Part shown: positions 29,928-49,100 of the stretch, piece after piece | Layout of the letters: each line of letters begins with the position of its first letter | Numbering within the stretch: the first letter of the stretch is position 1 | Source of the DNA: an uncultured Verrucomicrobiota bacterium | GTDB taxonomy: Bacteria; Auribacterota; JABMQX01 | DNA: 64,000 bases | NCBI GenBank assembly: GCA_964482435.1 | Contig: CAYZXL010000010.1 | Span: forward strand, 36,946 to 100,945 | Direction: 5' to 3' | Made by a program: the position numbers and the translations under genes | Notes under the pieces: model-generated | What the model was told of the DNA's origin: nothing | Databases searched by the model: none | The model's input: only the letters and a program-made list of their open reading frames with translations

Positions 29928-30538
29928 GCAAGCGAACGCGTCAGAACACCCCGGCGCCGCCGGAGACCGGGCAACGGACGCGACATCACCTCATCGCGTG
30001 ATTCCGTCCAGACAATGCGTTACCGGACTAACGAGTCATACTATTTGTTTCGTTGGCCTGAGTCTGACAACACATTACATTATGGCCGGTTGCCGGGCAA
30101 CGTGTTTCTCGCCGGTGGTGCGGCTACTTTTGAGTGGCGTGGTTCGTGGGTCCTGGGCCACTGGTCGCATGGCAGCTTGGAAGCGTAACGCCGCCGTCCC
30201 GGCGGCAGTCGTGAGGGCGTCCCGCCCTCGCACGGCAGCCAGCCCGACAATGTGTTTCACCTTGGCCGGGTTGAGCCGGGGGCAAGATGCCCCCGAGACA
30301 GCCGGCAAGATGCCGGCGGTACGCAGACCGACGCCACTCCCCACCAGTCCTTTGTTCCCTACGATTGCCGATCTGGTGCTTCGCCACTGAAAAAGAGCCA
30401 CACCCCTCGTCGGTAGCCGTTCGGGAATGGAGAAGGCAGAATTTGCGTGCGGTTGCTCCCCCGAATCTGTTTGTGGCACGGTCATTGGTGGAAACGCGGT
30501 GATGCAGTCCGCCATCACATTCCTTACAGTCTTTTCCG

Positions 30539-31687
30539 TTATCTTCGCAAGAGCGCACGGTATAAGCCAAGCAATTCCCTTTCCTCGCTCTGCCACGTGT
30601 AGCTTCTTTCGACCAGCTCCTTGCCTCTCTGTCCCATCTTTCTGGCCTCTTCGGGATGCTCGATGAGATAGACTATGGCATCCGCAACCTGTGGCACGTT
30701 CAGAGGGTCAACCAGCAGGCCGCATTCTCCCTCGCGGACAATCTTTCGGAAGAAGGGCAAGTCGGCCGCGATGACGGGAACGCCGCATGCCATCAGCTCG
30801 AAGAGCTTAATAGGCACAATCAGCTCGTGCATTGGCGCCGGATGATACAGCAACAATCCCGCTACTGCCCCGACGCAATAGGCAAAGACATCTTTGTGCG
30901 GAACCTGTCCGCGGTACTCGACGATGCCCTTTGCTTCACAGGAGGCAATCTCGGAGCGGAGCTCCTCATCCTCCACCGGCCCCAGAAGGCGAAGCCGCAC
31001 CGCAACCCTTTTGCCAGCGGCCTCTACCGACCTGAGCATCTCCCGTGCCCCGCGCGCGGAGTTGATTGTGCCGCAGTAAACGAGGAAGGGATAGGCAGAC
31101 AGAACGCTCGGCCTGGCTTTTGCGGCGGGATATATGTACTCAAGCATAGGATAATTATGGACGACCGTTCTAAACGGGATATGAGGTGAGTACTCTTGCG
31201 ATGGGACGATGACGCCCGACAGAAGGGGAGCTGCAAGACTTTCGAAAAGCCTGGCGAGTTTCGACAGGGCAACCTTGGCCCAATGCGGCAAATAGGGCTT
31301 CAGAAGAATGTCCTTGGGCAGGTCCTCGTGGGAATCGTAGATGACCTTCTTTCCAATCAGCCTCAGGAGCAACCCTGTGGGAATCAACTCAGGGTCGTGG
31401 AAGTGGAACAGGTCCCCGCCTTCCCGGAGAACCTTCCATATTACAGCGGTGGCGAGTAGGATCCTCCTGAACCTGGATGCTGGCCTGGCAAGCGATTTAA
31501 TGCGAACGCCGCTAATCGTCTCCTTCCGCGGATGGGATGCGAGAATTACTACGTTGTAGCCTGCCCGCGCGAGGCTCCGCGCCTCTTTGTGAAAAATGCG
31601 GTCGTCCGTCGCCTGATGCACGGTCGAGAAAATAACAACCTTGGGCCTGTCACCCTTTCGCTTCACGCGAGTCTCTCCAGAGAGCAA
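30539..31687 (-). CDS. family 4 (GT-B) glycosyltransferase
   Basis: The C-terminal GT4 region with an E-x7-E-like motif (PIKLFELMACGVPVIA) is preceded by a glycosyl-donor-binding domain. Confidence 0.75.
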   Translation of the reverse strand: MLSGETRVKRKGDRPKVVIFSTVHQATDDRIFHKEARSLARAGYNVVILASHPRKETISGVRIKSLARPASRFRRILLATAVIWKVLREGGDLFHFHDPELIPTGLLLRLIGKKVIYDSHEDLPKDILLKPYLPHWAKVALSKLARLFESLAAPLLSGVIVPSQEYSPHIPFRTVVHNYPMLEYIYPAAKARPSVLSAYPFLVYCGTINSARGAREMLRSVEAAGKRVAVRLRLLGPVEDEELRSEIASCEAKGIVEYRGQVPHKDVFAYCVGAVAGLLLYHPAPMHELIVPIKLFELMACGVPVIAADLPFFRKIVREGECGLLVDPLNVPQVADAIVYLIEHPEEARKMGQRGKELVERSYTWQSEERELLGLYRALLRR

Positions 31688-32609
31688 TTGCCTGTTTCAC
31701 CGGGACGATGCGCGCGCCATCAGCTTTTGCCTGAAGGATAATCTTCTCGTACAGGTCGCCCCAGTAGCGAGGAGCCGAGAAGCTGTGGGTGTGCCATAGG
31801 ACGGTGATTGCGCCGTGCCTTTCGCCCGCCTCGCGGATGAGTGCGGAAATTCTCCTCCACGCTTCAGAAGGGTCCATGTCCATCTTCGCCTGGTCGAGAA
31901 TTGGAGCGTCGTGAACGGGCAAAGGGAGAACGGTGAAAGGGTCACCGGCGAAGGGCCGGAAGGGGTCCTTCTTCCCTTCCGGCCACCCGATGATGTAGTT
32001 CGAGCCGAGGCTTGCGTCGTAGGCGTAGCCCGCCTGGCGAAGGATGCTCCATGAGTCCATTCCCTTGCTGTAGAACCAATGGGAGCGGTGGCCGATGTTC
32101 CTGTGGCCGAGGATTTCGGACATCATCCCGAATTCTCGGCGAGCCGCCTCGAGGTCCCGGTATGAATCAATTCCGTGGACTCCGATCTCCCACCCCTCCT
32201 CCTCGAGACGACAAAGCCTCTCTCGAAGACGCTCGATGAAGTAGTCCGCAGCCCTCCGCGTTGGGGCTTCTGCTCCGCGAGGTATCTTGCCCGGATTTCT
32301 CGCTTCGGGAATGAAAAAGATAGTCGAACGAACCCCGTGCCGTCTTTCGATGTCCAGCATCTTTCTGAAGGACTCTTCAATCGGGTCGGCCAGAATCCTT
32401 GCCTTGATTAACGGGACGCTCACGCCTGATAGGAGACCGTAGAGATACTGTCTGAGGGAAATTCGCCGCCGAAGGAGCCTCGCAACGTTTCCGAAGATGC
32501 ACCGGAAGACGTGCCCTCGCAGAGTCCGAGAATGCCAGGGAAGTTCCCGAACGGAAAGAAGGTCAACATCGTGCGTCAAGACGAGGATGTAGGGCGACTG
32601 ATTCGTCAT
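31650..32609 (-). CDS. polysaccharide deacetylase (NodB-like, CE4) family protein
   Basis: The protein has the motifs LTHDVD and His-rich IGVHG and WHTHSF, typical of carbohydrate esterase 4-like deacetylases. Confidence 0.65.
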   Translation of the reverse strand: MTNQSPYILVLTHDVDLLSVRELPWHSRTLRGHVFRCIFGNVARLLRRRISLRQYLYGLLSGVSVPLIKARILADPIEESFRKMLDIERRHGVRSTIFFIPEARNPGKIPRGAEAPTRRAADYFIERLRERLCRLEEEGWEIGVHGIDSYRDLEAARREFGMMSEILGHRNIGHRSHWFYSKGMDSWSILRQAGYAYDASLGSNYIIGWPEGKKDPFRPFAGDPFTVLPLPVHDAPILDQAKMDMDPSEAWRRISALIREAGERHGAITVLWHTHSFSAPRYWGDLYEKIILQAKADGARIVPVKQAIALWRDSREAKG

Positions 32610-33574
32610 AACTTCCCTAAGGCCGTCAGAACGACCCTCCCAAGAAGCGGAGCCTTGGTGATCAGACTATACGGCTGTTGCCTCGCACCGAACGCCCGGA
32701 AAAAGCGCTCCACCTGGGGGAGGCCCGACCCCTCAAAGTCGAAACCTTTAGTCCGGTCCCTTGCAAACCGGATCAGCCACCACAGCAGGAAAGCGTTTGC
32801 TCCGCTGTTGCGAAGTTCAGGGTCCCCCCCGGACACAAGGTCATAGGCATACTTCTTATCCCATGCGAGAAAGGCAGCAGCATGGCCGCGTCCATCCGGG
32901 TCTCTGGCGACGAAGCACTGTCCAGCGTTCCGCTCTTTGCATGCGCGAACGAGGGAAAAGAAAAGCTCTTGCGGGAAAGGCCGCTTCATCTTCTGGCGCT
33001 TGAAAGTCTTATCGCACAGGAGGAGGACTTCGGCCGGCTCAGCTCGTGAGACGGTCAATGGACGGCGCTCAGCCTTTCTTATGTCGGTGCGAACGTTCTC
33101 GCGCAGCCCGGCCCAAAGGGCGCCATCGTCCGAAATGTCGTCAAGAATGTACGTGAAAATGCTCGTCTGGCGGAAGCCCGCCCAGTAGAACGGAAGCCAA
33201 TTTGGGAGGCTGTGATGGAAACACTGAAAGAAGATTGGGATGTGGCGTAGATTGTCGGCGAGCGCTTTAAGGAGTTCCATCTCGCGCGAAAGGCGTGTCA
33301 CATATTTCCCCTCCATGGGCTCCAAAACCGGTCCCCATGACTGGCTCAACTTGGGCATCCGGCAGACCTTCACGAAGGCATACCGAGCAAAATGCAGCGG
33401 AATGCCCGCGACGAGCCGGCCGCCCCTGAAGCAGCCCAATATCCTGAAATTGTCGCCGCAGGAGGCTTTTATCCACCAGCTCTCGCAGAAAACACATCCC
33501 TGCGGAGAACGGTCCACGAGGCCGTCCCAATCCGCTATCTCATCGTCGGTTAAGAAGCGCACTTCCAGGCTCAC
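32606..33574 (-). CDS. FemAB-like/GNAT-fold acyl- or aminoacyl-transferase
   Basis: The 322-aa protein has an N-terminal DUF-like region and a C-terminal GNAT-like core. It overlaps both neighbours by 4 nt, indicating an operon. Confidence 0.55.
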   Translation of the reverse strand: MSLEVRFLTDDEIADWDGLVDRSPQGCVFCESWWIKASCGDNFRILGCFRGGRLVAGIPLHFARYAFVKVCRMPKLSQSWGPVLEPMEGKYVTRLSREMELLKALADNLRHIPIFFQCFHHSLPNWLPFYWAGFRQTSIFTYILDDISDDGALWAGLRENVRTDIRKAERRPLTVSRAEPAEVLLLCDKTFKRQKMKRPFPQELFFSLVRACKERNAGQCFVARDPDGRGHAAAFLAWDKKYAYDLVSGGDPELRNSGANAFLLWWLIRFARDRTKGFDFEGSGLPQVERFFRAFGARQQPYSLITKAPLLGRVVLTALGKL

Positions 33575-34584
33575 GGCTCACCCCGCCCTGCTGCGTTGAC
33601 TGGGTTCGGCTTTGCGGCAATGACTGCCAGCAAATGCGTCGCGAGGTCTTCGGGCAGAAAGCCTTTGAACCGGTCATTGACCCTCATGCGACGCAGCGCT
33701 CGCAGCGAGGGTTCGTCCACCCTGGGGTTCTTCCACAGAATGCGAAAGCCGGCCTGCGACATCATGTCAAGGAACTGCGAGGACCGCAGGCGGTTCTGGT
33801 ACTGAATCCTGTTTTGGCCGAGGATTCTCCACACGGCGTCAGAGTACTTCAGGAAATTGACCATGGAAATGGACTTGTCGAAGCCTGCGTAGTGATCCTG
33901 CAGGCCTATCCTGTGGTACATGAAGCCGGACGGCTTGAGAACCCGATGAGCTTCTCGAAGCAAGGCTTGCGCCACAGGTACGGGAACGTGCTCCAGCACC
34001 CCTCGTGTGAAAACAAGGTCCACGCTGCACGAACCCAGGCCCGTGCGAGTCGCATCCCCGGGGGCGATGTAGGCTATGCGTGCCGAGCGCATTAGCTCGC
34101 GCACACCGGCATGAAGCTTGAGCCCTCGCCGCCAATCCTCCAAACGGCTAACAGGAACGCCCGCCTTCCTGCTTATCTCATCGAACACTCGAACGAAGGC
34201 CCGCAGAGTAGTCAAAGCGAGTTGAGACGTTACGTGCTTTGTGATGTCGTAGGTAAGAACCTGGGCCGCACCGAGGGAGGAGAATAGAAGGGGCATCGTG
34301 GGATGCCAACCGGTGCCGACCTCAAGGACAATGCTCCCATCCACCCGGAAGCCTTGCTGCCGTAACGAAGCAATCATCTCGAGGCCCCACCTCGAAACGC
34401 CTGCGACCGACGTGTCTTTTCTGAAGCCGCCGACAGACCTCGACAGAAGAAAGTTGAGCTGCCGGCCTGCCGGCGCAACGGAGAGGATTGCCTGCAAGCC
34501 TGCTTTGAGTCTCCAGTCCATGACCAGGGTGATGATTCTCGCCTCGAGCGCCACACCCGAGCGATGTTGTCCGCCCTCCCACAC
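33571..34584 (-). CDS. class I SAM-dependent methyltransferase
   Basis: The protein has motif I VLEVGTGWH and motif II LKPSGFMYHR. The start is uncertain, possibly MDWRLKAG. Confidence 0.65.
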   Translation of the reverse strand: MWEGGQHRSGVALEARIITLVMDWRLKAGLQAILSVAPAGRQLNFLLSRSVGGFRKDTSVAGVSRWGLEMIASLRQQGFRVDGSIVLEVGTGWHPTMPLLFSSLGAAQVLTYDITKHVTSQLALTTLRAFVRVFDEISRKAGVPVSRLEDWRRGLKLHAGVRELMRSARIAYIAPGDATRTGLGSCSVDLVFTRGVLEHVPVPVAQALLREAHRVLKPSGFMYHRIGLQDHYAGFDKSISMVNFLKYSDAVWRILGQNRIQYQNRLRSSQFLDMMSQAGFRILWKNPRVDEPSLRALRRMRVNDRFKGFLPEDLATHLLAVIAAKPNPVNAAGRGEP

Positions 34585-34691
34585 AACTCACAGCCGAATG
34601 TAACACCCGCCCCGCCCGTCGTCAACTAAATAGCCTTCCGAGACTTGCGGTTTCTCCCCGGACCGTAGTTCGCCCTGGATCCACGCAGCGG

Positions 34692-35873
34692 CTACAGAAG
34701 CGAACGGTAAAGGCGCTGGGCCTGCGAAGCGTAATTCTCCCAGCGAAAAAGAGTCTCGATGCGTTTTCTCCCGGCTTTTCCCATGGAGAGGCGACGGTCT
34801 CGGTTCTCTGCAAGGGCGAGGGTTGCGGAGGCAAGTCCTTGCCAGTCCCCGACGGGAACGAGAAGTCCTGTCTCATTGTGAACGACCGCCTCCGGAATTC
34901 CCCCCACCGGCGTGGCTATGACCGGTAGCTCGCAAGCCATCGCCTCTAAGATGACGTTGGGCATGCCTTCGCTGTGCGACGGTAGAACGAGGACATCGCT
35001 TGCTTGCATCCAGCGGGCGACTTCGCTGCTCGGTCGTGCCCCGCACAAAAGCACCTTCGCCCCCATTGGGACAAACCTCCTCAGAAGCGGCCCTAATCCG
35101 ACGATGACGAGGAGAGAGCGGGGCAGAGCTTTTTCGACATGCGTCCATGCTCTTGCGAGCTCCTCAAGTCCCTTCTCCTGCGAAACTGTCCCGACGTACA
35201 GGGCTACAAAAGGTCTTTCCCGCATGCCGAACTCCTCCCGCAGGCTGCTCCTGCCGCTCGCGGGGGAAAATAGCTGCGTATCAACCCCTTTATAGAGAAC
35301 GGCTACTTCCCGCCGATTTCGCGACATGGAGGACATCTTCTCGGCGAGGTCTTCGCTGGTGGCGACAGGAGCGTCGCAGTTCTCGATGACGTGTCTGGTC
35401 AGGAGGAAATTCGCTCTCGATTCCCAGGGATAGACGTTCACGTCGCTTCCTCTCGCGTGACAGACGCACGGGAGACGGAACGCCCTCGAAAGCAGCACCG
35501 CGGCCATTCCGCACGGGAGCAATCCGTGGGCATGGATGAGGTCAAAAGGCTTTTGGCGCGACCACGACCGAAAAGAGACGTACAGGGAGGGGAACATCGC
35601 AAATGGGTCGCATTTGCGATAAAACGCTCCCGGGGGGCGAGGGTAACGCGGATAGCGTACCGGAATCCCGTCCCATTCATCTGACCGAGGCACCAGTCCT
35701 AAGTCCCTCCATTTTGACCTGTACCAGAGAAGGCGAGGGGAATATGGCAGAGGCGAAAGCACCCTCATGGCTATCCCCGACCGCTTCAAGGTCAGGCATT
35801 CGCGATGAACGAAAATGCCAGCGATTGGATCAGTCTTTCGGGGATACATGTCCGAAACAACCAGGATTCTCAC
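34692..35873 (-). CDS. family 4 (GT-B) glycosyltransferase
   Basis: The N-terminus MRILVVSDMYP is followed by a C-terminal GT4 signature (VLPSHSEGMPNVILEAMACELPVIAT). Confidence 0.8.
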   Translation of the reverse strand: MRILVVSDMYPRKTDPIAGIFVHRECLTLKRSGIAMRVLSPLPYSPRLLWYRSKWRDLGLVPRSDEWDGIPVRYPRYPRPPGAFYRKCDPFAMFPSLYVSFRSWSRQKPFDLIHAHGLLPCGMAAVLLSRAFRLPCVCHARGSDVNVYPWESRANFLLTRHVIENCDAPVATSEDLAEKMSSMSRNRREVAVLYKGVDTQLFSPASGRSSLREEFGMRERPFVALYVGTVSQEKGLEELARAWTHVEKALPRSLLVIVGLGPLLRRFVPMGAKVLLCGARPSSEVARWMQASDVLVLPSHSEGMPNVILEAMACELPVIATPVGGIPEAVVHNETGLLVPVGDWQGLASATLALAENRDRRLSMGKAGRKRIETLFRWENYASQAQRLYRSLL

Positions 35874-36228
35874 CGCTTCATCCTCTGTGGTTCCTGCAAT
35901 CCTACCGATTTATGGCACCGCGGCTTGCAGCCACACCCGTTCCGTTGGCGCGGCTGACAGCCCAAGCCAGGTCATCGTAACCGCCACGTGCGCGTCTCTC
36001 ACCGGGGCTAATTAGCCATCGGCTCGCTCTCGTTGGATGAGCCCAGATGCCACCGCGGCAGTACTTGACCGGTGATTCGCCAACGGCGAGCCCGTGCTGG
36101 ACCCGCGGAGAGTTTATCACGCTGCGAATTCCCCGTGAAAGTACAAAGGGGCACACCAGGGCGACCACGTTGTCGGGGGAACAGCGGGACCACACGGCAG
36201 AGCGCTCGCCCGGCGCTTAAGAGCGGGG

Positions 36229-37608
36229 TTAAACACGGCAGATGGCGAACCTCCTTTTGCCGGAGGCAGTGGGTGGGAAATCGGTAGTCTGTTCGAATGA
36301 GACTCTCGTGTCCTCACCGAGAACGGACTTCAGGACCCGTGTGAGCAATTCCCTGTTTTCCTCGGTGAGAGCGGGCGAGGGGGTGTGTCGAAGAGTAATA
36401 GCCCCGATCTGGTCCTGACAGAGTTGGAATTCATCTATAGGTATGCGGGTTCGCTGAAGGAGATACGTCGCCAGGACCCCGGAGACCCTGAAGCCGTCGG
36501 TTCGATAGAAAAACTCGTTCACCCGGCCATCGAGGCGAAGGATGCGACGAAACGGAAGCCCAAGGCTTGCATCTGGCTCTCCGATGCAGCCTGCGTCCCC
36601 GTTACGGTATCGGAGCAGAGGAAAAGCCCTGTTGTCTAAATCCGTTATCACAAATTCGCCGGTGCCGGTAGCAGAGATACGGCCGTCTTCGCCGAGGACT
36701 TCGATGACAACGTGGTCTTCGGGGATGCAGTGAGGCAGCCCGGGGCCGGGGCGGTGGCCAAGTGCCATGATTTCCCGACATCCATAGTAATCCATAACGT
36801 CTGCCCCCGTCACCTCCTTAATCTTGTCTGCCCAGTGCGGATGAAGCACTTCGGCCGTAGGATAGACTCCCGTCAGCGCCAAACTCACTCCGGCTTTCTG
36901 GAGGTAGTCGCAGAAAAGAAACCAGGCAGAGCAATACCCCATCCCGTACCGGATGCCTTTGCGTCGGCACATTTTCGCCACAGCGACTGCTGTTCGAGAG
37001 TCGAGTTCAAAGGCAGGGAATGGGTACACACGGTTGAGACGCCGAATCAAACGGTCCTTGAGGCCAGTCTTGCCTAACCCGAGGCTTCCCCCGTAGAACC
37101 CTAACGTCGGAAAACCTGTCTTGTACCCGGACCAGGAAAGACCGCGAAGGTGGCAAGCCTCCTGAACGAAGGTCGTCCACCTATCGCAGAGCACGGTGAC
37201 GGGCTGGCCGGTTGTTCCGCCGGTGGTGCGGGAGTCGGGCTGTAGAGAAGCCACCTCGTCGGAAAGAAGCTCTTTGTAACGATGCTGCACGATTTCTCTG
37301 GTCAGCAGGGGAATCGAAGAGAGGTCTTCCAGCCCACTGAAAGTCTGCGGCGACACACCTATTCGACGAAACAACTCGCGATAGTATGGAACGTGCTCAT
37401 AGCAGTACCTCGCAAGGCCAACAAGCTTGCGGTCGCGGTATGCCTTCAGCTCTTCTATGGACATTCGTTGCGCGGCATCAACCTCCAGGAGGAGGTGCTC
37501 GAGCCGAACTCGCCACTTGCGCGCAGCAAGTCGCGCTAGTAGTTCCGGGATTAGTCCCGAGTAATAGGCCTGTACAGGATTTCTCAGTCTGCGAGAGCTT
37601 TGTCTCAT
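36229..37608 (-). CDS. CapK/PaaK-like adenylate-forming enzyme (phenylacetate-CoA ligase / F390 synthetase family)
   Basis: The protein has the AMP-binding-like motif SRTTGGTTGQP and the family's C-terminal domain. The start is taken at MRQSSRRL with a GGGGAGGTG RBS. Confidence 0.7.
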   Translation of the reverse strand: MRQSSRRLRNPVQAYYSGLIPELLARLAARKWRVRLEHLLLEVDAAQRMSIEELKAYRDRKLVGLARYCYEHVPYYRELFRRIGVSPQTFSGLEDLSSIPLLTREIVQHRYKELLSDEVASLQPDSRTTGGTTGQPVTVLCDRWTTFVQEACHLRGLSWSGYKTGFPTLGFYGGSLGLGKTGLKDRLIRRLNRVYPFPAFELDSRTAVAVAKMCRRKGIRYGMGYCSAWFLFCDYLQKAGVSLALTGVYPTAEVLHPHWADKIKEVTGADVMDYYGCREIMALGHRPGPGLPHCIPEDHVVIEVLGEDGRISATGTGEFVITDLDNRAFPLLRYRNGDAGCIGEPDASLGLPFRRILRLDGRVNEFFYRTDGFRVSGVLATYLLQRTRIPIDEFQLCQDQIGAITLRHTPSPALTEENRELLTRVLKSVLGEDTRVSFEQTTDFPPTASGKRRFAICRV

Positions 37609-38262
37609 CTGCGGCACCTCCCCACCTCTGAGGTCAATGCCAGGGCACCTCAATGGGTTGGACATGTTCTTAACAGGCTTCCTGAGGCGATGTCAAGAAA
37701 TGTCGTCGGAAGGGGAAGCCTACGTTTGAGTGGTGCATCTTGTGTCTTTGAGGGCGCCAATGCGGCGACGGATTCGAACTGATGAATCAGAAATCGCCTG
37801 CCCCCGGGTGGGTCTGCGTTGAGCCGGTTCTTCATCCAGGGAGTGTCTGACCTTTGCGCGCCGAACTCTCTCGGGCAACAACGTCTTTCCCTCGGAGGAC
37901 CGTACTCCTAAGGGCGGCGGCTGCAAAAACAACGCCACGCTACTCGTGCCGGCGCCGAGCACGATTGCGGGTCTCGCGCGCGGACGGGCGGCGCGGGTCC
38001 GGCTTTTCCTGTAAAGCGATATGGGCCGTCGAACTGTTTCGACCGAGGGGTTCCCGCTGCGTCTTTCTGCGGCGCCTCGACCAAAACGGGGTTGACTTTT
38101 GTTCCCTGGGTGGCCGAATATGCCGCCGGAACCTATTCCGATGCCAGGGACGTTGGTTCAGCTGAGCGCGAGTTCCTCCGCGCGGTCGCCGGTTGGTGGC
38201 GAGCAAGCGTGGCTGGTTTTTCTGCTGAACCTGAAAAGAAGGGGGCAGACGAGAGCGATTCA

Positions 38263-38550
38263 ATGGCGACCTGTGATCGAAACAACTCAACACTCGGACG
38301 AATTCTCCTGAAAGCGCTAAGCTCAGTGAAGCTCGCCGTCAGTCTTCTATCGCTCATAGCTCTGGTTCTGATCGTCGCAACCTTAATCAGAAATCAGGAC
38401 CACGCCCGGCGGTACATCTACCACTCCTGGTGGTTCATTTCCCTGCTTGGCCTCTTGTGTCTCAAGCTTCTTGTGTGCGTAGCGGGGCGACGGTCTCTTA
38501 AACTGAAAAAGCTGGGGACAAGGGTGACCCGAGCCGCTGGCAGAGGTTAA
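38263..38550 (+). CDS. stand-alone ResB N-terminal fragment (first TM helix plus YHSWWF motif)
   Basis: The 96-aa ORF LGRILLKALSSVKLAVSLLSLIALVLIVATLIRNQ...YIYHSWWFISLLGLLCLKLLVC reproduces the canonical ResB/Ccs1 N-terminus. It ends 2 bp before the next gene, which contains a diverged second copy of the same segment. Confidence 0.5.
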   Translation: MATCDRNNSTLGRILLKALSSVKLAVSLLSLIALVLIVATLIRNQDHARRYIYHSWWFISLLGLLCLKLLVCVAGRRSLKLKKLGTRVTRAAGRG

Positions 38551-38551
38551 G

Positions 38552-41500
38552 ATGCCCGAGGAGCAACAAAAAGGACGGCAGAAACGCGCAGCTCAGAGGG
38601 AGGCATGGGGTATGGCGGCCCCAAGGTTTTCCAAAGGCGAGGCAGTTCGGTTCGGATGGAAGACGGCGAAGCGCAATGTGGGGTTTTTTGCGGGCCTCAC
38701 TATCTTAGTCGGGATCACCCACGTTACTCCCTGGCTTATCACGGCTGCGGCCCGACAGGATGCGGGGCTTCTCCCTCGTATTGTCAGCGTCGCTTCATGG
38801 CTACCACAAATCGTGGTGCAGATGGGGGTCATGAGAATCGCCTTAAGATTCTGCGACGGCGCGAGGGGCGCACTTAGCGATTTATTCTCCTGTTTTCCTC
38901 TGTACTTCAGATATGTACTTGGTTCGAATCTATACGCGCTGATATGTTTCGGGGTGCCGTTCTGGGCATATCTACTTAGTCCGATTCTACTCGTGGCGGC
39001 GCTTTTGTTATTTGCCATCCCCGGCATTATCTGGTCAATGAAATACCAGTTCTTTGGGTATTTCATCGTTGACAGGGGAGTCCCTGCCGTGAAAGCACTT
39101 CGCGCAAGCGCGAGGATCACCAGGGGCGCTAAGCGGGAGTTGTTCGAGTTCGCTATATTGCTCGTCCTTATCAACATTCTCGGGGCCCTGTGCCTGGGCA
39201 TCGGTCTCTTTGTGACGGTCCCGCTATCGCTGCTTGCTCATGCCTTCGTGTATCGAAAGTTGCTGGCGGCTACGGAAGGTGTTCGAACAGCAGAGACCCT
39301 TGAGGCCGTTCGACCCCGTGAATCAGTACTAAGAGTGCTCGGCTCGGTGCAGCTAACCGTCACGCTCTCGTTTCTCGTAGCCGTGGCGCTGATGGTTGCA
39401 ACCCTCATCGAGAATCAGGCTCAGGCTGGTCGCAATATTTACCATTCCTGGTGGTTTATTTCGCTGCTCGGGCTTTTCTGTCTCAATCTTCTTCTCTGCA
39501 CGGCAGGGCGATGGTCCTTCAGAGCGAAGAAGATCGGGATAACTGTTGCCCACGCAGGCGTCCTGGTCATGGTCGTCGGAGTGGTCATCGGCGCCATCTG
39601 GGGGCAGCGAGGCTCCGTTCAACTCTACATCGGCCAGGCGGACGATATTTGGTACCTCGAAAATAACAAGAAGATGAAGCTCCCCTTCGTCGTTTATCTC
39701 AAATACTTTAAGGTGCAACGCTATGTTCGTGAAAGGCTTGTGGTTTACGTGGTGGACCGCAACCTCGTCCGCTCTTTCCCGATGGAAGTCGGCAAGAGCT
39801 TCAGGGTTGCCGGGACGCCGTATTCCGTGACGACCCTGCGCTACGAGCCAGACTTCGTTGTTCTCGGCAAAGGGGGTTTCGGGAGCCGCTCCAGCGAGCC
39901 AAAAAATCCAGCAGTCCAGGTTCGCGTCGAGGACGGGTCAGACAACAAGACACTGTGGGTCTTCGCAAAAGCCCCCGGCATGCACCAGGACCCGGATTCC
40001 AACGTCCGCCTCCTTTATCAGCGGGTCGAAGAAAGGATCAAGAATTTCAAATCAAAGGTCCTGCTCCTGGGCGAGAAGGTCGTCCTTGTCGTGGATGACA
40101 GGCCCGTGGAGACGGGGTACTGGGGGCTCAGTCACCCTGTTTTCAGTCCGGATGGCAGGCACGTCGCATACAAGGGTTCGGGTACAGACGGCGCATGGGA
40201 GTGCGTAGTAGTGGACGGACAGCCCGGACCGAGATACGAAGCGCTTGGCCCCAGGCCTCCCGTGTTTCATGGGGACGGTACCCTGGAATATCTGGCCTTC
40301 GGAGACGGGGTGGTCTACCGCGTTAAACACATCCCGCAAGCTAAGAGCCCGCCGGAAAAGAGGTCTCCACCCGTCGGCAAGGAAACTGGCACCGGACGCC
40401 GCAGCATTTTTGAGGAACGTACTACTCCGCCCGTCACCTCCTCGCAAAGAACAGCGCCCCTCGCTAGCAAAACAACCCCTACCCGCCGGTCGAGCCTCTT
40501 CCATGACGAGCCCACTTCCGGCCGCACCGTTGCCGTCGCACAGGCCGCGTACCAGGTCGAGGAGGAGAAGGTCGGGACAATTGACCGCTCGGCATTTGAC
40601 CACGCCAAGTTCAGCGGGGATGGATTGCACATCGCCTACCGGGTGGACAAGGATGGTAGGTGGATGGTCGCATTGGATGGGAAGGCAGGCCCCGACTTCC
40701 AATGTGCCGGACTCTCGGGGGAGTATTTCTGTGAGCGGCTTTTAGCCCTCAGTTCGGACGCAAAGCGGTTGGCGTACGCCGCCGTGGAGGCTGGCAAGAC
40801 ATTCGTGGTTATGGACGGCAGGCCGGGACCCGCGTATGACGACGTTCAGGACGTCACCCTCAGCGCGGATGGAAGGCGTGTCGCATATGTCGCCAAGAGG
40901 GGCAACAAGTCGTTCGTGGTCGTTGATGAGCAAGCCGGCCCAGAGCTCGACGAGATTAGAGACCCGGCCTTCAGTCCCGACGGGGCGCGATTTGCCTACA
41001 AGGGCAGAGTGCTGGGCGAGCAGACATACGTACTCGCCGTGGACGGCAGACCAAGGCCTGAGCTGGGCGCTGTTTCTGATTTTGTCTTCAGCCCCGACGG
41101 AAAACGAATGGCGTATGTGGCCGAGAAAAATTCCAACCGGTTTGTGGTACTCGATGGACAAGGCGGTCCGGAGTTCAGCAACATCGAGGATTTGATGTTT
41201 AGCGCGGACGGCAAGCGCTTCGCGTACGTCGGTGAGCGTGTAAGTAAAGGTGCGAGAGAAACGATCCTGGTTGTGGATGGGACTTTGATACGGGGCGTCG
41301 GCGTTTACCCCCGGCAAACCTTCAGCGCGGATGGTAAGCGCCTGGCCTACGCAGCCCCCAGCGGCGACGGGTGTCGTGTCATGCTGGACGGCAAGCCGGG
41401 CCCTGTGTATTTTGACGTGCTGGACCTCACTTTCAGTCCTGACGGGAGGCGACTCGCGTACTGCGCCAGAGAGATCCTCGCCTCCAAGACGATTGAAGTC

Positions 41501-41737
41501 AACAAGCCCTTGAGATACCAGGGCTTTTCGATGTATCAATCAGCCTACGATGAGCAGCGCGAAATGTTTTCCGTTCTTGGCATAGTCAAAGACCCCGGCC
41601 TCCCTCTCGTCTATATCGGGTTCGCGGTGATTTCGGCAGGAGTCCTCTTCAACTTCTATCTGCGCCCCATCTTGACGGGGAAAGCACGGGGAACAGCGAC
41701 CCAGAAGGCGCACGCCAGCGGAAGAAACACTGACTGA
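38552..41737 (+). CDS. resB: ResB/CcsB-like cytochrome c biogenesis protein with an N-terminal DUF975-like membrane domain and a PD40-type beta-propeller periplasmic domain
   Basis: Residues 1 to about 265 form a four-TM domain with FGWKTAKRNVGFF. Around residues 280 to 330 is a ResB N-motif (IYHSWWFISLLGLFCLNLLLC). Residues from about 530 to 970 carry at least eight FSPDG[KR]R[FLMV]AY repeats, and the ResB C-terminal region reads MYQSAYDEQREMFSVLGIVKDPGLPLVYIGFAVISAGVLFNFYL. Confidence 0.65.
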   Translation: MPEEQQKGRQKRAAQREAWGMAAPRFSKGEAVRFGWKTAKRNVGFFAGLTILVGITHVTPWLITAAARQDAGLLPRIVSVASWLPQIVVQMGVMRIALRFCDGARGALSDLFSCFPLYFRYVLGSNLYALICFGVPFWAYLLSPILLVAALLLFAIPGIIWSMKYQFFGYFIVDRGVPAVKALRASARITRGAKRELFEFAILLVLINILGALCLGIGLFVTVPLSLLAHAFVYRKLLAATEGVRTAETLEAVRPRESVLRVLGSVQLTVTLSFLVAVALMVATLIENQAQAGRNIYHSWWFISLLGLFCLNLLLCTAGRWSFRAKKIGITVAHAGVLVMVVGVVIGAIWGQRGSVQLYIGQADDIWYLENNKKMKLPFVVYLKYFKVQRYVRERLVVYVVDRNLVRSFPMEVGKSFRVAGTPYSVTTLRYEPDFVVLGKGGFGSRSSEPKNPAVQVRVEDGSDNKTLWVFAKAPGMHQDPDSNVRLLYQRVEERIKNFKSKVLLLGEKVVLVVDDRPVETGYWGLSHPVFSPDGRHVAYKGSGTDGAWECVVVDGQPGPRYEALGPRPPVFHGDGTLEYLAFGDGVVYRVKHIPQAKSPPEKRSPPVGKETGTGRRSIFEERTTPPVTSSQRTAPLASKTTPTRRSSLFHDEPTSGRTVAVAQAAYQVEEEKVGTIDRSAFDHAKFSGDGLHIAYRVDKDGRWMVALDGKAGPDFQCAGLSGEYFCERLLALSSDAKRLAYAAVEAGKTFVVMDGRPGPAYDDVQDVTLSADGRRVAYVAKRGNKSFVVVDEQAGPELDEIRDPAFSPDGARFAYKGRVLGEQTYVLAVDGRPRPELGAVSDFVFSPDGKRMAYVAEKNSNRFVVLDGQGGPEFSNIEDLMFSADGKRFAYVGERVSKGARETILVVDGTLIRGVGVYPRQTFSADGKRLAYAAPSGDGCRVMLDGKPGPVYFDVLDLTFSPDGRRLAYCAREILASKTIEVNKPLRYQGFSMYQSAYDEQREMFSVLGIVKDPGLPLVYIGFAVISAGVLFNFYLRPILTGKARGTATQKAHASGRNTD

Positions 41738-41747: not shown

Positions 41748-42740
41748 ATGTCACCCACAAGATTATTCTTCACCTGTGCCGAAGTAGCCTATTTCTTAGC
41801 GGGTGTGACTTTCGTAATTTACTACCTGAGCCGCAAGAGTGGCTTTCGGGTCGTTGCGATTTCTCTTCTGGTCGTCGGCGCGCTGTCCCAGGCCCTTTTC
41901 GTCGCCTGGCGATGGGGGGAAGCAGGACGCCCCCCGTTCGCCAATACGTTTGAAACGCTCGTGTTCTTCAGCCTGGTCATCGCGGTAGTCTGCATTGTCC
42001 TGGAGCTGCTTTATTCACCGAAGATTGTCGGGGCGGGCGGCGCGCTCCTCGCCCTCTTAGCCGTCGGGTACGCGAACCTGTTTGAGTGGCAAATCGAGCC
42101 CCTTATGCCCGCCCTGCAAAACAACTTCTGGTTGACCCTCCACGTCGTCTTCTGCTTCATCAGCTACGGCTCTTTCGCGGTATCTTTCGTGGCGGCTCTC
42201 ATTTTCCTTGTGATGCACGGCGGCGTCTTGCGAAAGATTTCGGCGTTTCTGGTATCTCTTTGCGTCGTGGGGCTTGTCGGTGGCCTGTTCTACGGGTTGG
42301 CGCTGCTGGGAATGGGTATCGCAGCCGCCGTGGCCGGAGGAGTTGTCGTGGCGGGGTTGATCTCACTCGCCCTGACATCCATTCTGACAAAGAAAGGAGT
42401 CACGGCCGAAGGAAGAACCAGCGTTCTCTCGGACCTGGTATGGAAGATGGTCGCGTTCGGCTTTCCGTTTCTCACTCTCGGAATCATGACTGGCTCGGTC
42501 TGGGCGAGCGTCGCTTGGGGGAGGTACTGGGGATGGGACCCGAAGGAAACGTGGTCGCTGATTACCTGGCTCGTTTACGCATTTTTCCTTCACGTGCGAT
42601 TCTCCGGCGGGCTGTTCGGCCTGAAGGCAAAATCGCTCCCGCAACTCCAGGCGATTCTCTCGGCGATTGGTTTCCTCTTCGTCCTTTTCACCTACTTCGG
42701 GGTCAACTACCTCCTGTCCGGCCTCCACGCCTACACATAA
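41748..42740 (+). CDS. ccsA: cytochrome c-type biogenesis protein CcsA/ResC (heme-handling WWD protein)
   Basis: The protein has the Trp-rich WWD motif WGRYWGWDPKETWSLITW and eight predicted TM helices. Confidence 0.85.
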   Translation: MSPTRLFFTCAEVAYFLAGVTFVIYYLSRKSGFRVVAISLLVVGALSQALFVAWRWGEAGRPPFANTFETLVFFSLVIAVVCIVLELLYSPKIVGAGGALLALLAVGYANLFEWQIEPLMPALQNNFWLTLHVVFCFISYGSFAVSFVAALIFLVMHGGVLRKISAFLVSLCVVGLVGGLFYGLALLGMGIAAAVAGGVVVAGLISLALTSILTKKGVTAEGRTSVLSDLVWKMVAFGFPFLTLGIMTGSVWASVAWGRYWGWDPKETWSLITWLVYAFFLHVRFSGGLFGLKAKSLPQLQAILSAIGFLFVLFTYFGVNYLLSGLHAYT

Positions 42741-43510: not shown

Positions 43511-44857
43511 ATGACTTTTGACGGCGTTTCACGGAAATTCTGGAGTTTGTGTGCAGGCGCTTCTCTCCTGATGAGCGCCTGTGCGATGGCAGGCGAAGTC
43601 GAGTCTCGGAAGGGCGCCCCTTTGTCTCTCTCCATCCAGGATAGTGTCAAGATTGCCGTGCGGAACAATCCCGTCGTGCAGATTGCGAGGGAAGAGCAAA
43701 GCGTCGCCCGTGGGAAGCTAACCGAAGCCAGGTCAGCAACCCTGCCTCACTTGGCGGCTTCGGGAACATATACATGGCTGGAGAGAGTCCCCAGCGCCAC
43801 ATTCATGGAGAGAACTTTCACGCTGGGCGAACAGGGACAGTACCTCACGTCGCTCGACCTTTCCCAGACCCTGTTCAGCGGCGGGCGCATCTCCGCTGGC
43901 ATACGGGGTGCAAAGTTCTACCGCGCCCTTGCCGAAGAGCAGCTCCGCGGGACGCAGCAGACTATCGCCTTCAGTGCCGAGAAAGCCTACTACGATGTCC
44001 TGGTCAATGCGGAATTCTATGCCGTCAGCCAGCACGCCCTCGAGCTTGCAGAAGGGCACAAAGCCGATGTGGAGAAAAGGCACGCGCAGGGGACAGTTTC
44101 GGACTACGACCTCCTTCGGGCGACCATCGAAGTCTCCAACATGCGTGCCCAGATGATCAAAGCCCGAAATGCCCTGAATCTCACGCAGACGACCTTTCTG
44201 AAAGTGCTGGCCTTACCTCTGACGACGGAATTTCTTTTGACCGACAAGCTTTCATACGAGCGAGCGACGGCGAAAATGGAGGAGAGCCTGGCAGTGGCTT
44301 TGCTCCAGCGGTCGGACTTGAAACAGGCCGACATCAAAGTAGCCATGCAGAAGGAAACCATTCGCGCCACGGCGGGAGCATTGTATCCGACGCTGGCTGC
44401 CGTCGGAACCTGGGAAGGAGGCAACGCAAGCCGGTTCTCATTTGGCGGCACGGGGTGGAGTGAGGGCTGGTACGTCGGCGCCATGGTCTCTGTCCCGGTT
44501 TTTGAGGGGATGGAAACGAAGGGAAAGTTGGCTCAAGAAAGAGCAAGGCTTCGCCAAAACGAGCTTCAAAAACAGGATTCTCTTCAGTCGGTTGAGCTGG
44601 AAGTCAAACAAGCCATCCTGAACCTCGAGGACGCCACAGAGTTTGTGGAATCCCAGAAAGAAAATGTCAGGCAGGCGGAGGAAGGCCTGCGCCTGGCCAA
44701 TGTACGCTACGCCAATGACATGGCGACGGAACTGGACGTGCTGGATGCGAGGGTCGCGCTGACTCAGGCCCGGAACAACTACGCGCAGGCGGTTTACAGC
44801 CATATGCTTGCCCGGTTATCCCTGAAGAAAGCTATGGGAGTCATTCCCCTGCCGTAG
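43511..44857 (+). CDS. TolC-like outer membrane efflux protein (OMF)
   Basis: The 448-aa protein has a signal peptide and two repeated alpha/beta-barrel halves with a TolC-like coiled-coil pattern. It lies upstream of MFP and RND genes. Confidence 0.75.
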   Translation: MTFDGVSRKFWSLCAGASLLMSACAMAGEVESRKGAPLSLSIQDSVKIAVRNNPVVQIAREEQSVARGKLTEARSATLPHLAASGTYTWLERVPSATFMERTFTLGEQGQYLTSLDLSQTLFSGGRISAGIRGAKFYRALAEEQLRGTQQTIAFSAEKAYYDVLVNAEFYAVSQHALELAEGHKADVEKRHAQGTVSDYDLLRATIEVSNMRAQMIKARNALNLTQTTFLKVLALPLTTEFLLTDKLSYERATAKMEESLAVALLQRSDLKQADIKVAMQKETIRATAGALYPTLAAVGTWEGGNASRFSFGGTGWSEGWYVGAMVSVPVFEGMETKGKLAQERARLRQNELQKQDSLQSVELEVKQAILNLEDATEFVESQKENVRQAEEGLRLANVRYANDMATELDVLDARVALTQARNNYAQAVYSHMLARLSLKKAMGVIPLP

Positions 44858-44876
44858 GCAACGAAAGGACACAGGA

Positions 44877-46094
44877 GTGCGCAAGGGCAAAATCGTGATC
44901 CTGTTGATTGTGGCCGCCCTGGCAGCGGGAACAGGCTACCGTGTGTACCGCCTTATCACTGCGAAGGAGAAACAGCCCGAGTCCTCTGATTCCGCGGCGG
45001 TGGCCGTTAAGGTTACGCCCGTGGAGGTGGGCACGATTCGACGGGACATTCGACTGACGGGTGATGTTCAGGCGGAGACAAGCGTGCAGGTCTTCCCGAA
45101 ATGCCCTGGTCGTTTGCTGGAGCCAACGGAGAAGCACCTGGAAAAGGCCCGTGCTCTATACAAGGAGGGGGCGATCTCCGAGGAGCCTGTCGCCAAAATC
45201 GAAGAAGTGGATGAGGGATACGTCGTTGCGAAGGGCCAGGTCATTGCCGTTATTGACCACGAGAACCCGGAGGCGCAGGTTAACCAGGCGAGGGCAGCGC
45301 TGACCACCGCCGACGCTCAGCTCAATCAGGCGGATGTTGCGCTCACGCAGACGGAAAAGGACCTCGAAAGAACTCGCAACCTGGAAAAGGAGGGTGCGGC
45401 TTCGAAGCAGGCTCTCGAGAAAATTGAGGCGGAATATAAGAGTCTCGTCCAGCAGAAGAACGTTGCCGAAGCGAGGGTCACCCAAAGCCGCGCTGCCTTC
45501 AACCAGGCCCAGATTCTGTTGGCGGAGTGTTTCATCACGGCGCCCATTTCCGGGATCATCTCTCAGAGATTCCTCGAGACGGGAGATATGGCGATGGTAA
45601 CGCGCCCGATCTTCGCCATCGTAGATGTGGACAAGGTTGAGGTAACCGCCGACCTTCCTGAAAGGAACCTCAACGACGTTCGAGAAGGGGCAGAGGTTTC
45701 GATGGGGGTGGACGCCTTTCCCGGGCGTGTGTTCAAGGGCATTATCACCAAAATCAGCCCGACGTTAAACGTTGTGAACCGCACCGCGAAATTGGAGATC
45801 ACAGTTCCGAATTCGGACCATGCCCTCAAGCCCGGGATGTTTGCTCGGGTGACCATGAATATTGCAGAAAGAAAGGGAGTCCCGGTTATCCCCGAGGCGG
45901 CGGTTCTCGGAGACGAATCCGGCAGGTATGTTTTCGTCGTTGGGAGCGGTGTTGCCCACCGCCGCAATGTGACCCTTGGCCTGGAAGAAGGGCCCACGGT
46001 CGAGGTGGCCGAGGGACTCCAACCCGGAGAAATGCTGGTAACCGCAGGCCATCAGAAGCTATTAGAAGGACAGTCTGTGCAAGTGGAGAAATAA
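44877..46094 (+). CDS. efflux RND transporter periplasmic adaptor (membrane fusion protein)
   Basis: The protein has an N-terminal TM anchor, a coiled-coil hairpin and beta-barrel domains of the HlyD/AcrA family, with a GTG start. Confidence 0.8.
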   Translation: MRKGKIVILLIVAALAAGTGYRVYRLITAKEKQPESSDSAAVAVKVTPVEVGTIRRDIRLTGDVQAETSVQVFPKCPGRLLEPTEKHLEKARALYKEGAISEEPVAKIEEVDEGYVVAKGQVIAVIDHENPEAQVNQARAALTTADAQLNQADVALTQTEKDLERTRNLEKEGAASKQALEKIEAEYKSLVQQKNVAEARVTQSRAAFNQAQILLAECFITAPISGIISQRFLETGDMAMVTRPIFAIVDVDKVEVTADLPERNLNDVREGAEVSMGVDAFPGRVFKGIITKISPTLNVVNRTAKLEITVPNSDHALKPGMFARVTMNIAERKGVPVIPEAAVLGDESGRYVFVVGSGVAHRRNVTLGLEEGPTVEVAEGLQPGEMLVTAGHQKLLEGQSVQVEK

Positions 46095-46176
46095 GGGGTG
46101 AGACAAGGCGGCTCTCGCGCGAATGCCTGAGCGCTCAGTGCCCGTCGTTACCCGAAAATCGGGAGTGTAGTTTGCC

Positions 46177-49100
46177 ATGAGCCTTCCTCGTTTTTGCGTC
46201 GGGCATCCCGTAACAACCCTGATGATTTTCTTTGGGGTTATCCTCATAAGCATCATCTCACTCCTTCGCCTTCCCGTGGACATGTTTCCGGAGATGACCA
46301 TCCCGTCCCTCAGTGTGATTACCCAGTATCCGGGGGCCAGTGCGGAGGACGTCGAGACGCAGGTGACGGAGCCGCTCGAAGACCGTCTCACGACGATCCC
46401 CGACCTCAAGCACATCCTCTCCACGTCCAAACAGGACCTATCTGTGATTACACTGAGCTTTGAGTGGGGAACGGACCTCGACACGCGAGCTAACGACGTC
46501 AGGGATGCCATCGGTTTCGCGGAGGTGGTCTTGCCCGACGACGCGGAAAAGCCCCTCGTCCTCAAATTTGACGTGTCCAACTTCCCCGTCATGGGTTACG
46601 GCATTACCGCCAGGGAAAGCTACCCTGACCTGAAGGAGACCGTCGAGAATGAGGTTGCTGACCCCCTCAAGCGGATTCCGGGTGTCGGCGCGGTCATGAT
46701 TCGAGGAGCACCGCGTCGTCAGGTCAACATTGACCTCGACCGCCAGCTCCTCGCGACTCATCATCTTACCCCTCAGGATGTCGTCCGTGCCATCTACAGC
46801 GAAAACCAGACCAATCCGGCCGGCAATCTCAAAGTTGGGGTCAAGGACTACTCCATTCGCGTGCCCGGTGAGTTCAAACAAGTCGAGCCGATGAAGCGAA
46901 TCGTCGTCTCCAACCAGGGAGGAAAGATTGTCCGCCTGGAGGATGTCGCTACTACGGTAGAGTATGCCTTCGCAGAGGAATTACAGCCTGTCCGAATTGA
47001 TGGTCAAAAGGGTCTTGTCCTCATGGTCCTCAGGCAATCTGGCGCCAATACGGTCAAGGTTGCCAGAGCGGTCCAGAAACAGGTAAAGGTCCTCGCCAAG
47101 CGCCTCCCGGAGGACGCCAAAGTCATTAGCGTCTGGGACGGTTCCGAAGACATTACTCGGATGATTAACGACCTCGTGACGACATTGTGGCAAGGGGGGC
47201 TGTTGACCGTCCTCGTTATCCTCATCTTTCTGCGGCAAGTCCGTGCGACGTTCATCATCGCGCTGTCCATTCCGTTTTCTCTGATCTCGACTCTGATTCT
47301 CACGTACGTCCTCGGCTACACGATTAACATGATCTCTCTCTTTGGCCTCGTCGTCGCCGTCGGAATGGTCGTGGACAACTCCATTGTCATCCTCGAGAAC
47401 ATCTCTCGGCATCGGGAGGAGGGAGAGAGCAAGAAAGAAGGCGCGCTCTACGGGGCGGGGGAGGTGGCACTGGCCGTCGCAGCGTCCACGTACACCACCG
47501 TCGTGGTTTTCCTCCCCCTGATCTTCGTCAAAGGGGTCATCAAGATTCTGTTTACACAGTTTGGAGTCGTTTTCTGCGCGACCATTCTCAGTTCCCTCTT
47601 CATCGCCGTTACTCTTACTCCGATGCTCTCCTCGAAGATACTGCCAGGGGCCTGGGACGAGACTCGGTCCAAGGGGCTTTTCCGCAGGCTTTATCAATGG
47701 TCCGGGCGGCTTCTCGACCCTATCTTTGTCGGGTACGATAAAGCGCTCGCATGGGCCTTGAACCATCGCAAGACCGTGATTGCCTTAGCGGTCGCCATCT
47801 TCGGCGGGAGCCTCTTCCTGATGCCATTCATCGGCAGCGAATTCACCCCCGATCAGGACCAGGGCTCTCTCCAGGGAACCCTTTACCTCCCTGTCGGAAC
47901 GAGGGTCGAGGAAACCGATCGGATCATGGCGGAAATCGAGGAGATTATGAAACGGGAGGTTCCCCCGGAAGAATTGTTGGTCACTTATGTTCGCTGCGGT
48001 CAGAGCGAGGAGGGGATATCAAGCATCTTTGGAGACGAAGGTCCCCACATTGGCGAATTTGGGGTGAAGCTCGTTCCGAAGACCCAGCGCAAAGAGGGCT
48101 TCAAGGAGATCGCCGAAAGGCTTCGAAAGAGAATTGCCCAGATTCCGGAGATAGAGAAATTCCGTGTTGAGACCCAGGACCCAATGGCCGGACTTCTACT
48201 CGGACAGGAGCGGCCCGTTACCGTCAACGTCTTCGGCAGAGACATGGAAAAGACCGATGCTTTCGCCGCGGAAGTCGAGAAAATCTTTCAGTCCGTGCGC
48301 GGAACAACCGACGTGGAAATCTCCCGGGTCAAAGGAAAGCCGGAGCTATGGGTGCAGATTGACCGCGACAAGGCTTCCTCGATGGGGTTGAATGTCTCAA
48401 CGATTTCTGACACGGTTCGTGCCGCGTTCTACGGCCGCGAGGCATCCAAATACAGAATCGGCGGCAACCAATACGACATCTTCGTTCGCCTCGACGACAA
48501 AAACCGCCTGACGCCCGACGATGTCCGGGAAATGGACATTCGCCTGCCGACCGGCGAGACCACGCAAGTCGCCAACCTCGCCGAGGTTGTCCCCCACCTC
48601 GGCCCCGTGACCATCGAACGAAAGGACCGCGACCGCATTGTTAACGTTGGCTCCGGCGTTGGCAAGCGGTCCATGGGCGAGATTGTGACGGATGTCAAGA
48701 AAAAAGTCGAGCGTCTTCCGCGAACGCCAGGGGTGGAGTGGCAGATGGCGGGTCAAGCAGAGGAGCAGAAGGAATCCTTCTTCTGGCTGAGGATTGCCAT
48801 TCTCATTGGCGTCATTCTCGTTTACATGGTCATGGCGGCTCAGTTCGAGTCGTTACTCCATCCTTTCGTAGTCATGTTCTCGGTTCCGTTCGCTTTCACG
48901 GGAGTCATCTGGGCTATGTTCCTCGGCGGATTTCATCTTAGTATCGTCGTTTTCATAGGGGTGCTGCTGCTCATCGGCATCGTCGTGAACAATGCTATCG
49001 TCCTGGTTGACTATACGAACATTCTCCGGGCGCGCGGCCTTGGAATCAAGGAGGCCGCCTTCCGGGCGGGAAGGACCCGGCTGCGGCCCGTTCTCATGAC

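Follow-up and report, generated by a model that had tools for sequence, protein, structure and literature searches.

ResB (also CcsB or Ccs1; Pfam PF05140) is the partner of CcsA (ResC) in system II cytochrome c synthesis. CcsB has a single conserved histidine in its transmembrane (TM) helices, TM-His1, which is located in TM3 and is a ligand of the transmembrane heme, and its large periplasmic region, which shows little conservation, withstands being cleaved or split (PMC6299221). In Helicobacter and Bacteroides, CcsB is fused to CcsA to give CcsBA. Fragments of displaced genes have been described in other systems: in type VI secretion system (T6SS) effector/immunity modules of Vibrio cholerae, sequential displacement leaves orphan remnants, according to the accessible part of PMC5361080, and homology-facilitated illegitimate recombination (HFIR) is defined in the accessible part of PMC3240628. 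In this study, we report the analysis of a 64-kb window, that is, the whole stretch of 64,000 nucleotides (nt) taken from contig CAYZXL010000010.1 of an uncultured Verrucomicrobiota bacterium, in which a 95 amino acid (aa) open reading frame (ORF) resembling the N-terminus of ResB, here called the stub, lies directly upstream of a much larger resB fused to a DUF975-like module, here called the big ORF. Comparison with a syntenic contig of a sister genome (L085) revealed that the stub is a mosaic, the first 59 codons of which are nearly identical to the intact resB of the sister, followed by a sharply bounded, divergent tail. We consider it probable (roughly 0.65) that the stub is the stranded 5' end of resB, a remnant left after a divergent, elaborated allele recombined into the locus.

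Compared with the ResB/CcsB family, the stub carries TM1, the following loop, TM2 and the YHSWWF motif, but it ends at the start of TM3, has Arg at the TM-His1 position and is without the periplasmic domain and the last TM helix. The big ORF, with a full ResB core directly upstream of ccsA, has the arrangement of resBC operons, but differs from ResB/CcsB in having a DUF975-like module at the N-terminus and, in addition, a PD40 propeller insert, features present in 0/26 of the closest compact ResBs. It shares with CcsBA the tolerance of ResB for fusion to other membrane modules; unlike in CcsBA, however, the partner is the N-terminal DUF975-like module, a propeller is present in the periplasmic region, and ccsA is a separate gene. 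The closest counterpart of the module itself is in P0003, a protein of the DUF975 family (PF06161), the first ~221 codons of which match it, including the Shine-Dalgarno (SD) sequence, the start codon and the linker, although in the window the module is fused to ResB and not to GYF, zinc-ribbon and TPR regions, and falls below the gathering threshold of the family.

Structure of the stub and its surroundings

The product of the stub matches the Pfam ResB profile (PF05140) with 25.6 bits against a cutoff of 24.6, a marginal match that covers profile positions 53-93 of 486 only. By BLASTP, its residues 15-91 align with residues 259-335 of the downstream ORF (46/77 identical, 60%; E = 1e-21). Both results confirm the central observation of an earlier note on this DNA, namely that an orphan ResB N-terminal ORF is present directly upstream of a DUF975-like-fused resB. 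That note had assumed a single TM segment, but the stub consists of two hydrophobic helices (TM1 and TM2) and the opening residues of TM3, which is cut off after ~6 residues, and its C-terminal tail is strongly basic, with 8 K/R in the final 20 residues. The periplasmic domain and the C-terminal TM helix are missing, the stub ending at residue 95 where compact relatives extend to 340-430 aa. Ungapped DNA alignment of 38305-38535 with 39326-39556 gave 158/231 identical positions (68%; 47% at third codon positions), a little lower than the three-quarters estimated earlier. No third copy of the segment was found within the window, and the reading frame of the stub contains no stop upstream as far back as TTG 38092.

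The sequence of the stub is 100% identical in contigs of four separate sequencing runs (ERR3804376, ERR4334730, ERR4334734 and ERR4334736), the NCBI record agrees, and the same 95-aa gene was called independently in the Logan assemblies. Identity across four independent runs indicates that the stop codon is no base-calling error and that, as the earlier note had held, the locus is no assembly repeat. A chimeric assembly at the conserved motif was also considered and was ruled out, since the contigs of the four runs cross the junction identically. The features of the locus are as follows.

37714..38262, + strand: intergenic region upstream of the stub, common to the sister genome
38263..38550, + strand: stub ORF, 95 aa, ATG start, TAA at 38548-38550; ResB N-terminus with TM1, YHSWWF loop, TM2 and basic tail
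38263..38439, + strand: stub codons 1-59 (N1), resident, sister-genome-type resB 5' end, pristine
38440..38541, + strand: stub codons 60-93 (tail), divergent, decayed resB TM2/TM3-start, attributed to the imported haplotype
38542..38595, + strand: junction filler, 54 nt, no detectable homologue; holds the stub TAA (38548-38550) and the alternative ATG 38552
38552..41737, + strand: big ORF, 1061 aa, counted from its earliest ATG, 38552, 1 nt past the stub stop
38596..39321, + strand: DUF975-like membrane module with its own Shine-Dalgarno sequence GGAGG (38599-38603) and ATG 38612
39325..40059, + strand: ResB core part 1, covering TM1-TM3 plus the beginning of the periplasmic domain; internal copy of the stub segment at 39326-39562
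40060..41474, + strand: PD40/beta-propeller insert, ~470 aa, inside the ResB periplasmic domain, just before ASKTIEVNKPL
41475..41737, + strand: ResB C-terminal part, with the ASKTIEVNKPL motif and the last TM helix; 72.5% nt identity to L083
41748..42740, + strand: ccsA (resC), Pfam Cytochrom_C_asm 129 bits, starting 11 nt past the big-ORF stop

An exhaustive HMMER search of 50% representatives with the stub returned as best match P0010 (68% identity), a complete ResB of 387 aa, and no stand-alone stub family separable from contig-end fragments; a word-indexed search for homologues returned the stub alone. With P0010 as query, a clade of ~26 compact ResBs of 340-430 aa was obtained, which served for the comparisons below.

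Mosaic identity of the stub

The genes of the sister contig L085 are arranged as in the window: glycosyltransferases, an oppositely oriented capK-like gene, resB, ccsA, tetR, OEP, MFP, RND pump and aldo-keto reductase genes. At the syntenic site it carries a single uninterrupted resB encoding P0163 (374 aa), which begins MATRDRNNSTLGRILLKALSSVKLAVSLLSLMALVLIVATLIRNQDLARRYIYHSWWFISLLGL, almost exactly the sequence of the stub. The stub represents only the first ~93 codons of this intact orthologue at the same locus, and of the two outcomes proposed in the earlier note, a pseudogene fragment or a functional mini-protein, the pseudogene fragment is the better description.

By blastn, identity to L085 was 96-97.6% over 28073-37713 and 49653-51422, and 92.6% over 37704-38528; it was only 69.6% over the ResB core (39342-40053), and 38529-39341 and 40054-41477 had no match. 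L085 9496-10320 aligns without gaps to 37704-38528, with 85-100% identity in 60-nt windows. The divergent tract extends from 38440 to ~41905, 3.46 kb replacing 1.06 kb of the sister, and its right boundary lies ~160 nt into ccsA, where mismatches to L085 fall from 8-9 to 0-1 per 30 nt. The earlier note had named, as what would speak against it, a relative with an uninterrupted resB from which the window differed by a sequencing error; the intact resB does exist in L085, but the difference is a 3.46-kb replacement, with no error at 38548-38551.

The left boundary of the tract falls inside the stub, sharply at codon 59/60 and directly past TAC CAC TCC TGG TGG TTC ATT (YHSWWFI), which is the best conserved DNA among the stub, the internal copy and L085. 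N1 differs from L085 resB at 7/177 nt (96% nt identity), with a nonsynonymous divergence (dN) of 0.020 and a synonymous divergence (dS) of 0.092. It keeps 25/25 of the columns conserved at >= 90% in the ResB clade and, placed 6th among the 26 sequences by its mean identity to the clade, belongs to the most consensus-like N-termini. Codons 15-59 are 96% identical to P0163, 65-82% to other clade members and 63% at the amino-acid level to the internal copy. Over codons 60-91, by comparison, 36/96 nt differ from L085 and 30/96 from the internal copy, and the tail comes last of the 26 sequences in identity to the clade. It has lost 5/12 conserved columns (F>L, N>K, W>R, H>R, G>A), against 0/25 in N1 (Fisher p = 0.0018).

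The H>R change is at codon 90, which is CGA (Arg) in the stub and CAC (His) in L085 and in the big ORF, the column being invariant in the clade alignment. The lost residue aligns with the invariant His at the start of TM3 (…TVTHAG…), ~21 residues ahead of the periplasmic domain, and judged by this position it appears to correspond to TM-His1 of CcsB. As predicted from its sequence, a protein without TM-His1, TM3, the periplasmic domain and TM4 cannot act as ResB. The stub is, as these identities suggest, a chimera of the resident resB 5' end and the tail of an older stub.

The origin proposed in the earlier note was that the 5' end of resB had been partially duplicated in tandem long ago in this same lineage, together with a DUF975 insertion, the copies having diverged in place to ~68% DNA identity. 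The presence of two ResB N-termini on one strand, separated by 1 kb, is in accord with it, as is the finding that, set against 80 ccsA loci of Genome Taxonomy Database (GTDB) representatives, each copy is nearer the other (60%) than any other ResB (<= 40%). Additionally, the dS of the tail is smaller to the big ORF (0.79) than to L085 (1.48), values that are only indicative as they come from 32 codons. A duplication in place, however, cannot yield 4% and 37% divergence in adjoining segments of one small ORF, and codons 1-59 are 96% nt identical to the intact resB of the sister, in line with the flanks (96-98%), up to a sharp breakpoint. Moreover, N1 is closest to P0163 and then to most clade members (71-82%), ahead of the internal copy (63%), so that the two copies are not mutually closest over the duplicated span as paralogues would be; an affinity is suggested only for codons 60-91, by dS over 32 codons. 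We regard this origin as very unlikely. Dating the event as old from low DNA identity does not hold for codons 1-59, which are the resident resB 5' end, and is arguable only for the last 32-35 codons; most of the divergence between the stub and the internal copy would be divergence between lineages brought together by recombination. In the lineage that supplied the tract, the arrival of DUF975 may nevertheless have been connected with an old partial duplication.

The downstream fused resB and its junction with the stub

The earlier note placed the start of the big ORF just past the stub stop. A start at ATG 38552, 1 nt after the stop, is possible, but ATG 38612 is the more probable one, since homology to the stand-alone DUF975 gene begins at 38596 and includes GGAGG 8 nt before that ATG; this would leave 61 nt between the stub stop and the gene. 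Over 726 nt, the DUF975-like module and the 5' part of the P0003 gene (contig L099) have 67.6% nt identity, starting 16 nt ahead of the P0003 ATG, and amino-acid identity is 58%, the N-terminus of P0003 (MAARKFSKGEAVRFGW) aligning with Met21 of the big ORF. Against Pfam DUF975 (PF06161), the module scores 24.8 bits, under the cutoff of 34.8, and P0003 just passes with 35.0; the label DUF975-like, short of formal membership in the family, is fair.

The fusion point between the DUF975 and ResB segments lies at 39321/39325. ResB core part 1 (Pfam ResB, 50 bits) has 67.2% nt identity to the resB of L083, the contig that encodes P0010, and 69.6% to that of L085, and the C-terminal part aligns with the C-termini of compact ResBs. 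The interval between the two parts, which homology to L083 and L085 skips, consists of repeats matching Pfam PD40 (TolB-like beta-propeller) with 76-87 bits (best 86.7), and is absent in 26/26 compact ResB relatives and in the sister genome. The ResB part is an orthologue-grade member of the clade, no other member of which carries the DUF975 module either. The whole big ORF scores 75 bits against Pfam ResB and keeps 64/64 invariant columns of the clade alignment, the TM3 His (TM-His1) included, and its internal TM1 region diverges more than that of any other clade member (57% mean identity). The profile match, the conserved residues and the adjacent ccsA are those of a ResB/CcsB, and because the clade-invariant residues are kept and ccsA adjoins, we infer that the big ORF is a working ResB which, together with CcsA, would constitute a functional system II cytochrome c synthase.

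Among 5.8 billion proteins, the full fused architecture was found in this strain only, other matches being to the DUF975 module alone (P0003, 58%, and P0004) or to ResB alone. A search of GTDB representative genomes with CcsA returned no close relative, the best match being 47% identical and not syntenic, and none of the 80 ccsA loci from these representatives has more than one ResB N-terminus or any DUF975 module. A scan of JGI metagenomes using the ResB-clade alignment led by the fusion protein gave 11 loci, none of which matched the DUF975 part, and when a third haplotype was sought by exact-protein look-ups of the big ORF and TetR, every contig returned was 100% identical and from the same strain.

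At the junction, resB homology stops near 38541 and homology to the DUF975 gene begins at 38596. The frame of the big ORF (+1) is open only from ~38528, with a stop just upstream. Only 1 nt separates the stub stop from ATG 38552, the big ORF is read in the +1 frame, and AGAGG is located directly upstream of the stub TAA, an arrangement that might suggest that the stop is artefactual or bypassed, either through an error or through a programmed +1 frameshift or read-through at 38548-38552 joining the stub to the big ORF. We consider this extremely unlikely: the +1 frame is open only from ~38528, no slippery motif is present there, and the DUF975 module has a conserved SD and an ATG (38612) of its own, which are homologous to the start of P0003. 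The sequence is, moreover, the same in the four runs and the NCBI record, and the difference from the sister genome amounts to kilobases and not to a single base. The possibility of read-through or frameshifting raised in the earlier note is not borne out.

Probable exchange history and possible function of the stub

We favour the window, rather than the sister, as the recipient of the exchange, because this would explain a pristine N1 beside a decayed tail without invoking selection. The left crossover would have occurred right after the YHSWWFI-coding motif and the right crossover ~160 nt inside ccsA, so that the imported tract would comprise the decayed last third of the stub, the 54-nt filler, the complete elaborated resB and the start of ccsA. 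Codons 60-95 would come from an older stub that was already ahead of the DUF975-resB fusion in the supplying lineage. As the left end of the tract lies within the stub, the supplying haplotype would already have had resB-5'-like sequence before the fusion, and the combination of stub and fusion would predate the exchange. The older stub may have been born when the 5' part of a DUF975-family gene joined ahead of resB, an event that would have duplicated or displaced resB codons ~15-93, and it would later have drifted free of constraint.

As far as the accessible parts of the two papers describe them, the T6SS remnants of Vibrio cholerae and HFIR resemble this locus in that a divergent incoming segment leaves a truncated displaced gene beside the new gene, with near-identical flanks and a divergent interior. 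The difference is that both tract ends here resemble homologous crossovers, one at the resB motif and one in ccsA. For this reason, the illegitimate join (resB codon ~93, filler, DUF975 SD) probably took place earlier, in the donor lineage.

The region 37714..38262 presumably holds the resB promoter and 5' untranslated region. Over 37908-38260 it is 98-100% identical to L085, above the neighbouring coding sequence (96-97%), and since this native upstream region and the start codon have been kept, the stub is now probably transcribed from the resB promoter, and possibly translated, as an operon leader ORF. No sigma-70 consensus promoter was found in 37500-39000, which is uninformative where the promoter type of the organism is unknown, and no Rfam family matched in the window, the upstream region included. 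Most likely, as far as can be judged from sequence, the stub is non-functional and is transcribed as the leader of the real gene.

Several observations weigh against the stub being a stranded remnant. It has kept its ATG and an open frame, its two TM helices are good ones and its C-terminal tail is strongly basic, as would be expected of a small membrane protein that is well behaved. The three-way branch estimates for the tail, which would fit relaxed constraint since dN (0.22) exceeds dS (0.13) on the stub branch, against dN 0.07 and dS 0.65 for the big ORF, are very noisy, as they rest on 32 codons. No donor lineage with the same arrangement was found in the protein databases, the GTDB ccsA loci or the JGI scan. 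Two haplotypes of the species were available (the window and L085), from which the direction of exchange is not polarisable, and if the sister were the recipient, long purifying selection on N1 of the stub would be implied.

The last point is central to an alternative in which the stub is a functional two-TM membrane protein under selection, the stub and the fusion are ancestral, and the sister regained a compact resB from a foreign allele recombined onto the 5' end of the stub; the stub might then bind CcsA or the fused ResB via TM1. The full set of 25/25 conserved columns and the consensus-like character of N1 would be expected under it, as would a frame that is open and indel-free against both homologues across 93 codons, and the tail, having turned strongly basic, would fit a cytoplasmic cap after TM2. 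The divergence of the internal TM1 region in the big ORF (57% mean identity) is also compatible with such a role, and TM1 of CcsB has been reported to co-evolve with CcsA TM8 (PMC6299221). Pairwise dN/dS between the stub and the internal copy is 0.12-0.26, but purifying selection on the stub, as read from this ratio, was dropped, since codons 1-59 are nearly identical to the intact orthologue: the low ratio is inherited from the intact gene and is uninformative on the stub itself. As a test of constraint, N1 has the drawback of very recent ancestry shared with an intact gene (dS 0.09 to L085), which fully accounts for both the low dN/dS and its pristine state. In the tail, the sole part that has surely spent a long time within a stub, five conserved residues have gone, the TM-His1 position among them; no stand-alone homologue outside this strain was found by the word-indexed and HMMER searches; and the big ORF keeps all invariant N-terminal residues and needs no complementation. 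We consider a selected stub unlikely. A more specific form of it, which we hold to be distinctly improbable, is that a maintained small membrane protein (TM1, YHSWWF loop, TM2 and basic cap) might dock on CcsA or the DUF975-ResB fusion, for instance via the TM1 surface that co-evolves with CcsA TM8, and modulate or assist heme delivery. If true, this would be a natural split ResB, with the ancestral TM1 hairpin and the elaborated core as separate polypeptides.

Returning to the stranded 5' end of resB as the preferred explanation, the stub is an ordinary genomic scar of allelic replacement or illegitimate joins, and a textbook illustration of the fragments, resembling ancient duplications, that are left when diverged lineages recombine. 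For genome scans, it follows that low identity of nearby copies does not date a duplication and that a sister genome is needed. The replacement gene is a more unusual object than the stub: the elaborated ResB is a known protein in a novel form, not seen in the GTDB ccsA loci, the JGI scan or the protein databases, and among the collections searched it is confined to this strain. If it is functional, it illustrates the extent of elaboration that can be accommodated in the periplasmic region of CcsB/ResB, which is poorly understood, and an added periplasmic binding function is hinted at.

Further differences between the two haplotypes were noted outside the resB tract. Between flanks that are 96-99% identical, other patches divergent from L085 are located at 42180-42400 (ccsA), 43980-44180 (OEP gene) and 44780-49650, and the MFP and RND efflux pump region as a whole is merely 53-83% identical to L085, which suggests that the efflux pump may also have been allelically replaced. 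A mosaic of divergent patches such as this appears typical of recombination with a diverged donor, and discontinuous donor segments are described for natural transformation in the accessible part of PMC13344027. Upstream of the stub, the intergenic region 37704-38262 is GC-rich (0.64), and a 162-nt indel relative to L085 is present at ~37704-37713.

Within the ResB clade, P0162, P0165, P0166, P0177, P0180 and P0181 carry an insert of ~45 aa (…YTWDGAWYE…KYLLYT…) at a different position of the periplasmic domain, and this domain seems, from the alignment, to be a recurrent insertion site in the clade. At the P0010 locus (L083 4938-6101), ccsA does not follow resB; what comes next is a 408-aa gene that matches glycosyltransferases weakly, and then genes for a DsbD-like thiol-disulfide transporter and a thioredoxin, so that not every member of the clade has resB and ccsA side by side. 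P0003 (L099 6001-9444) is a protein of 1147 aa with weak GYF, zinc-ribbon and TPR matches, and its gene is located between proA-like and proB/proC-like genes. L099 and the sister contig L085 come from the same JGI sample (3300035179).

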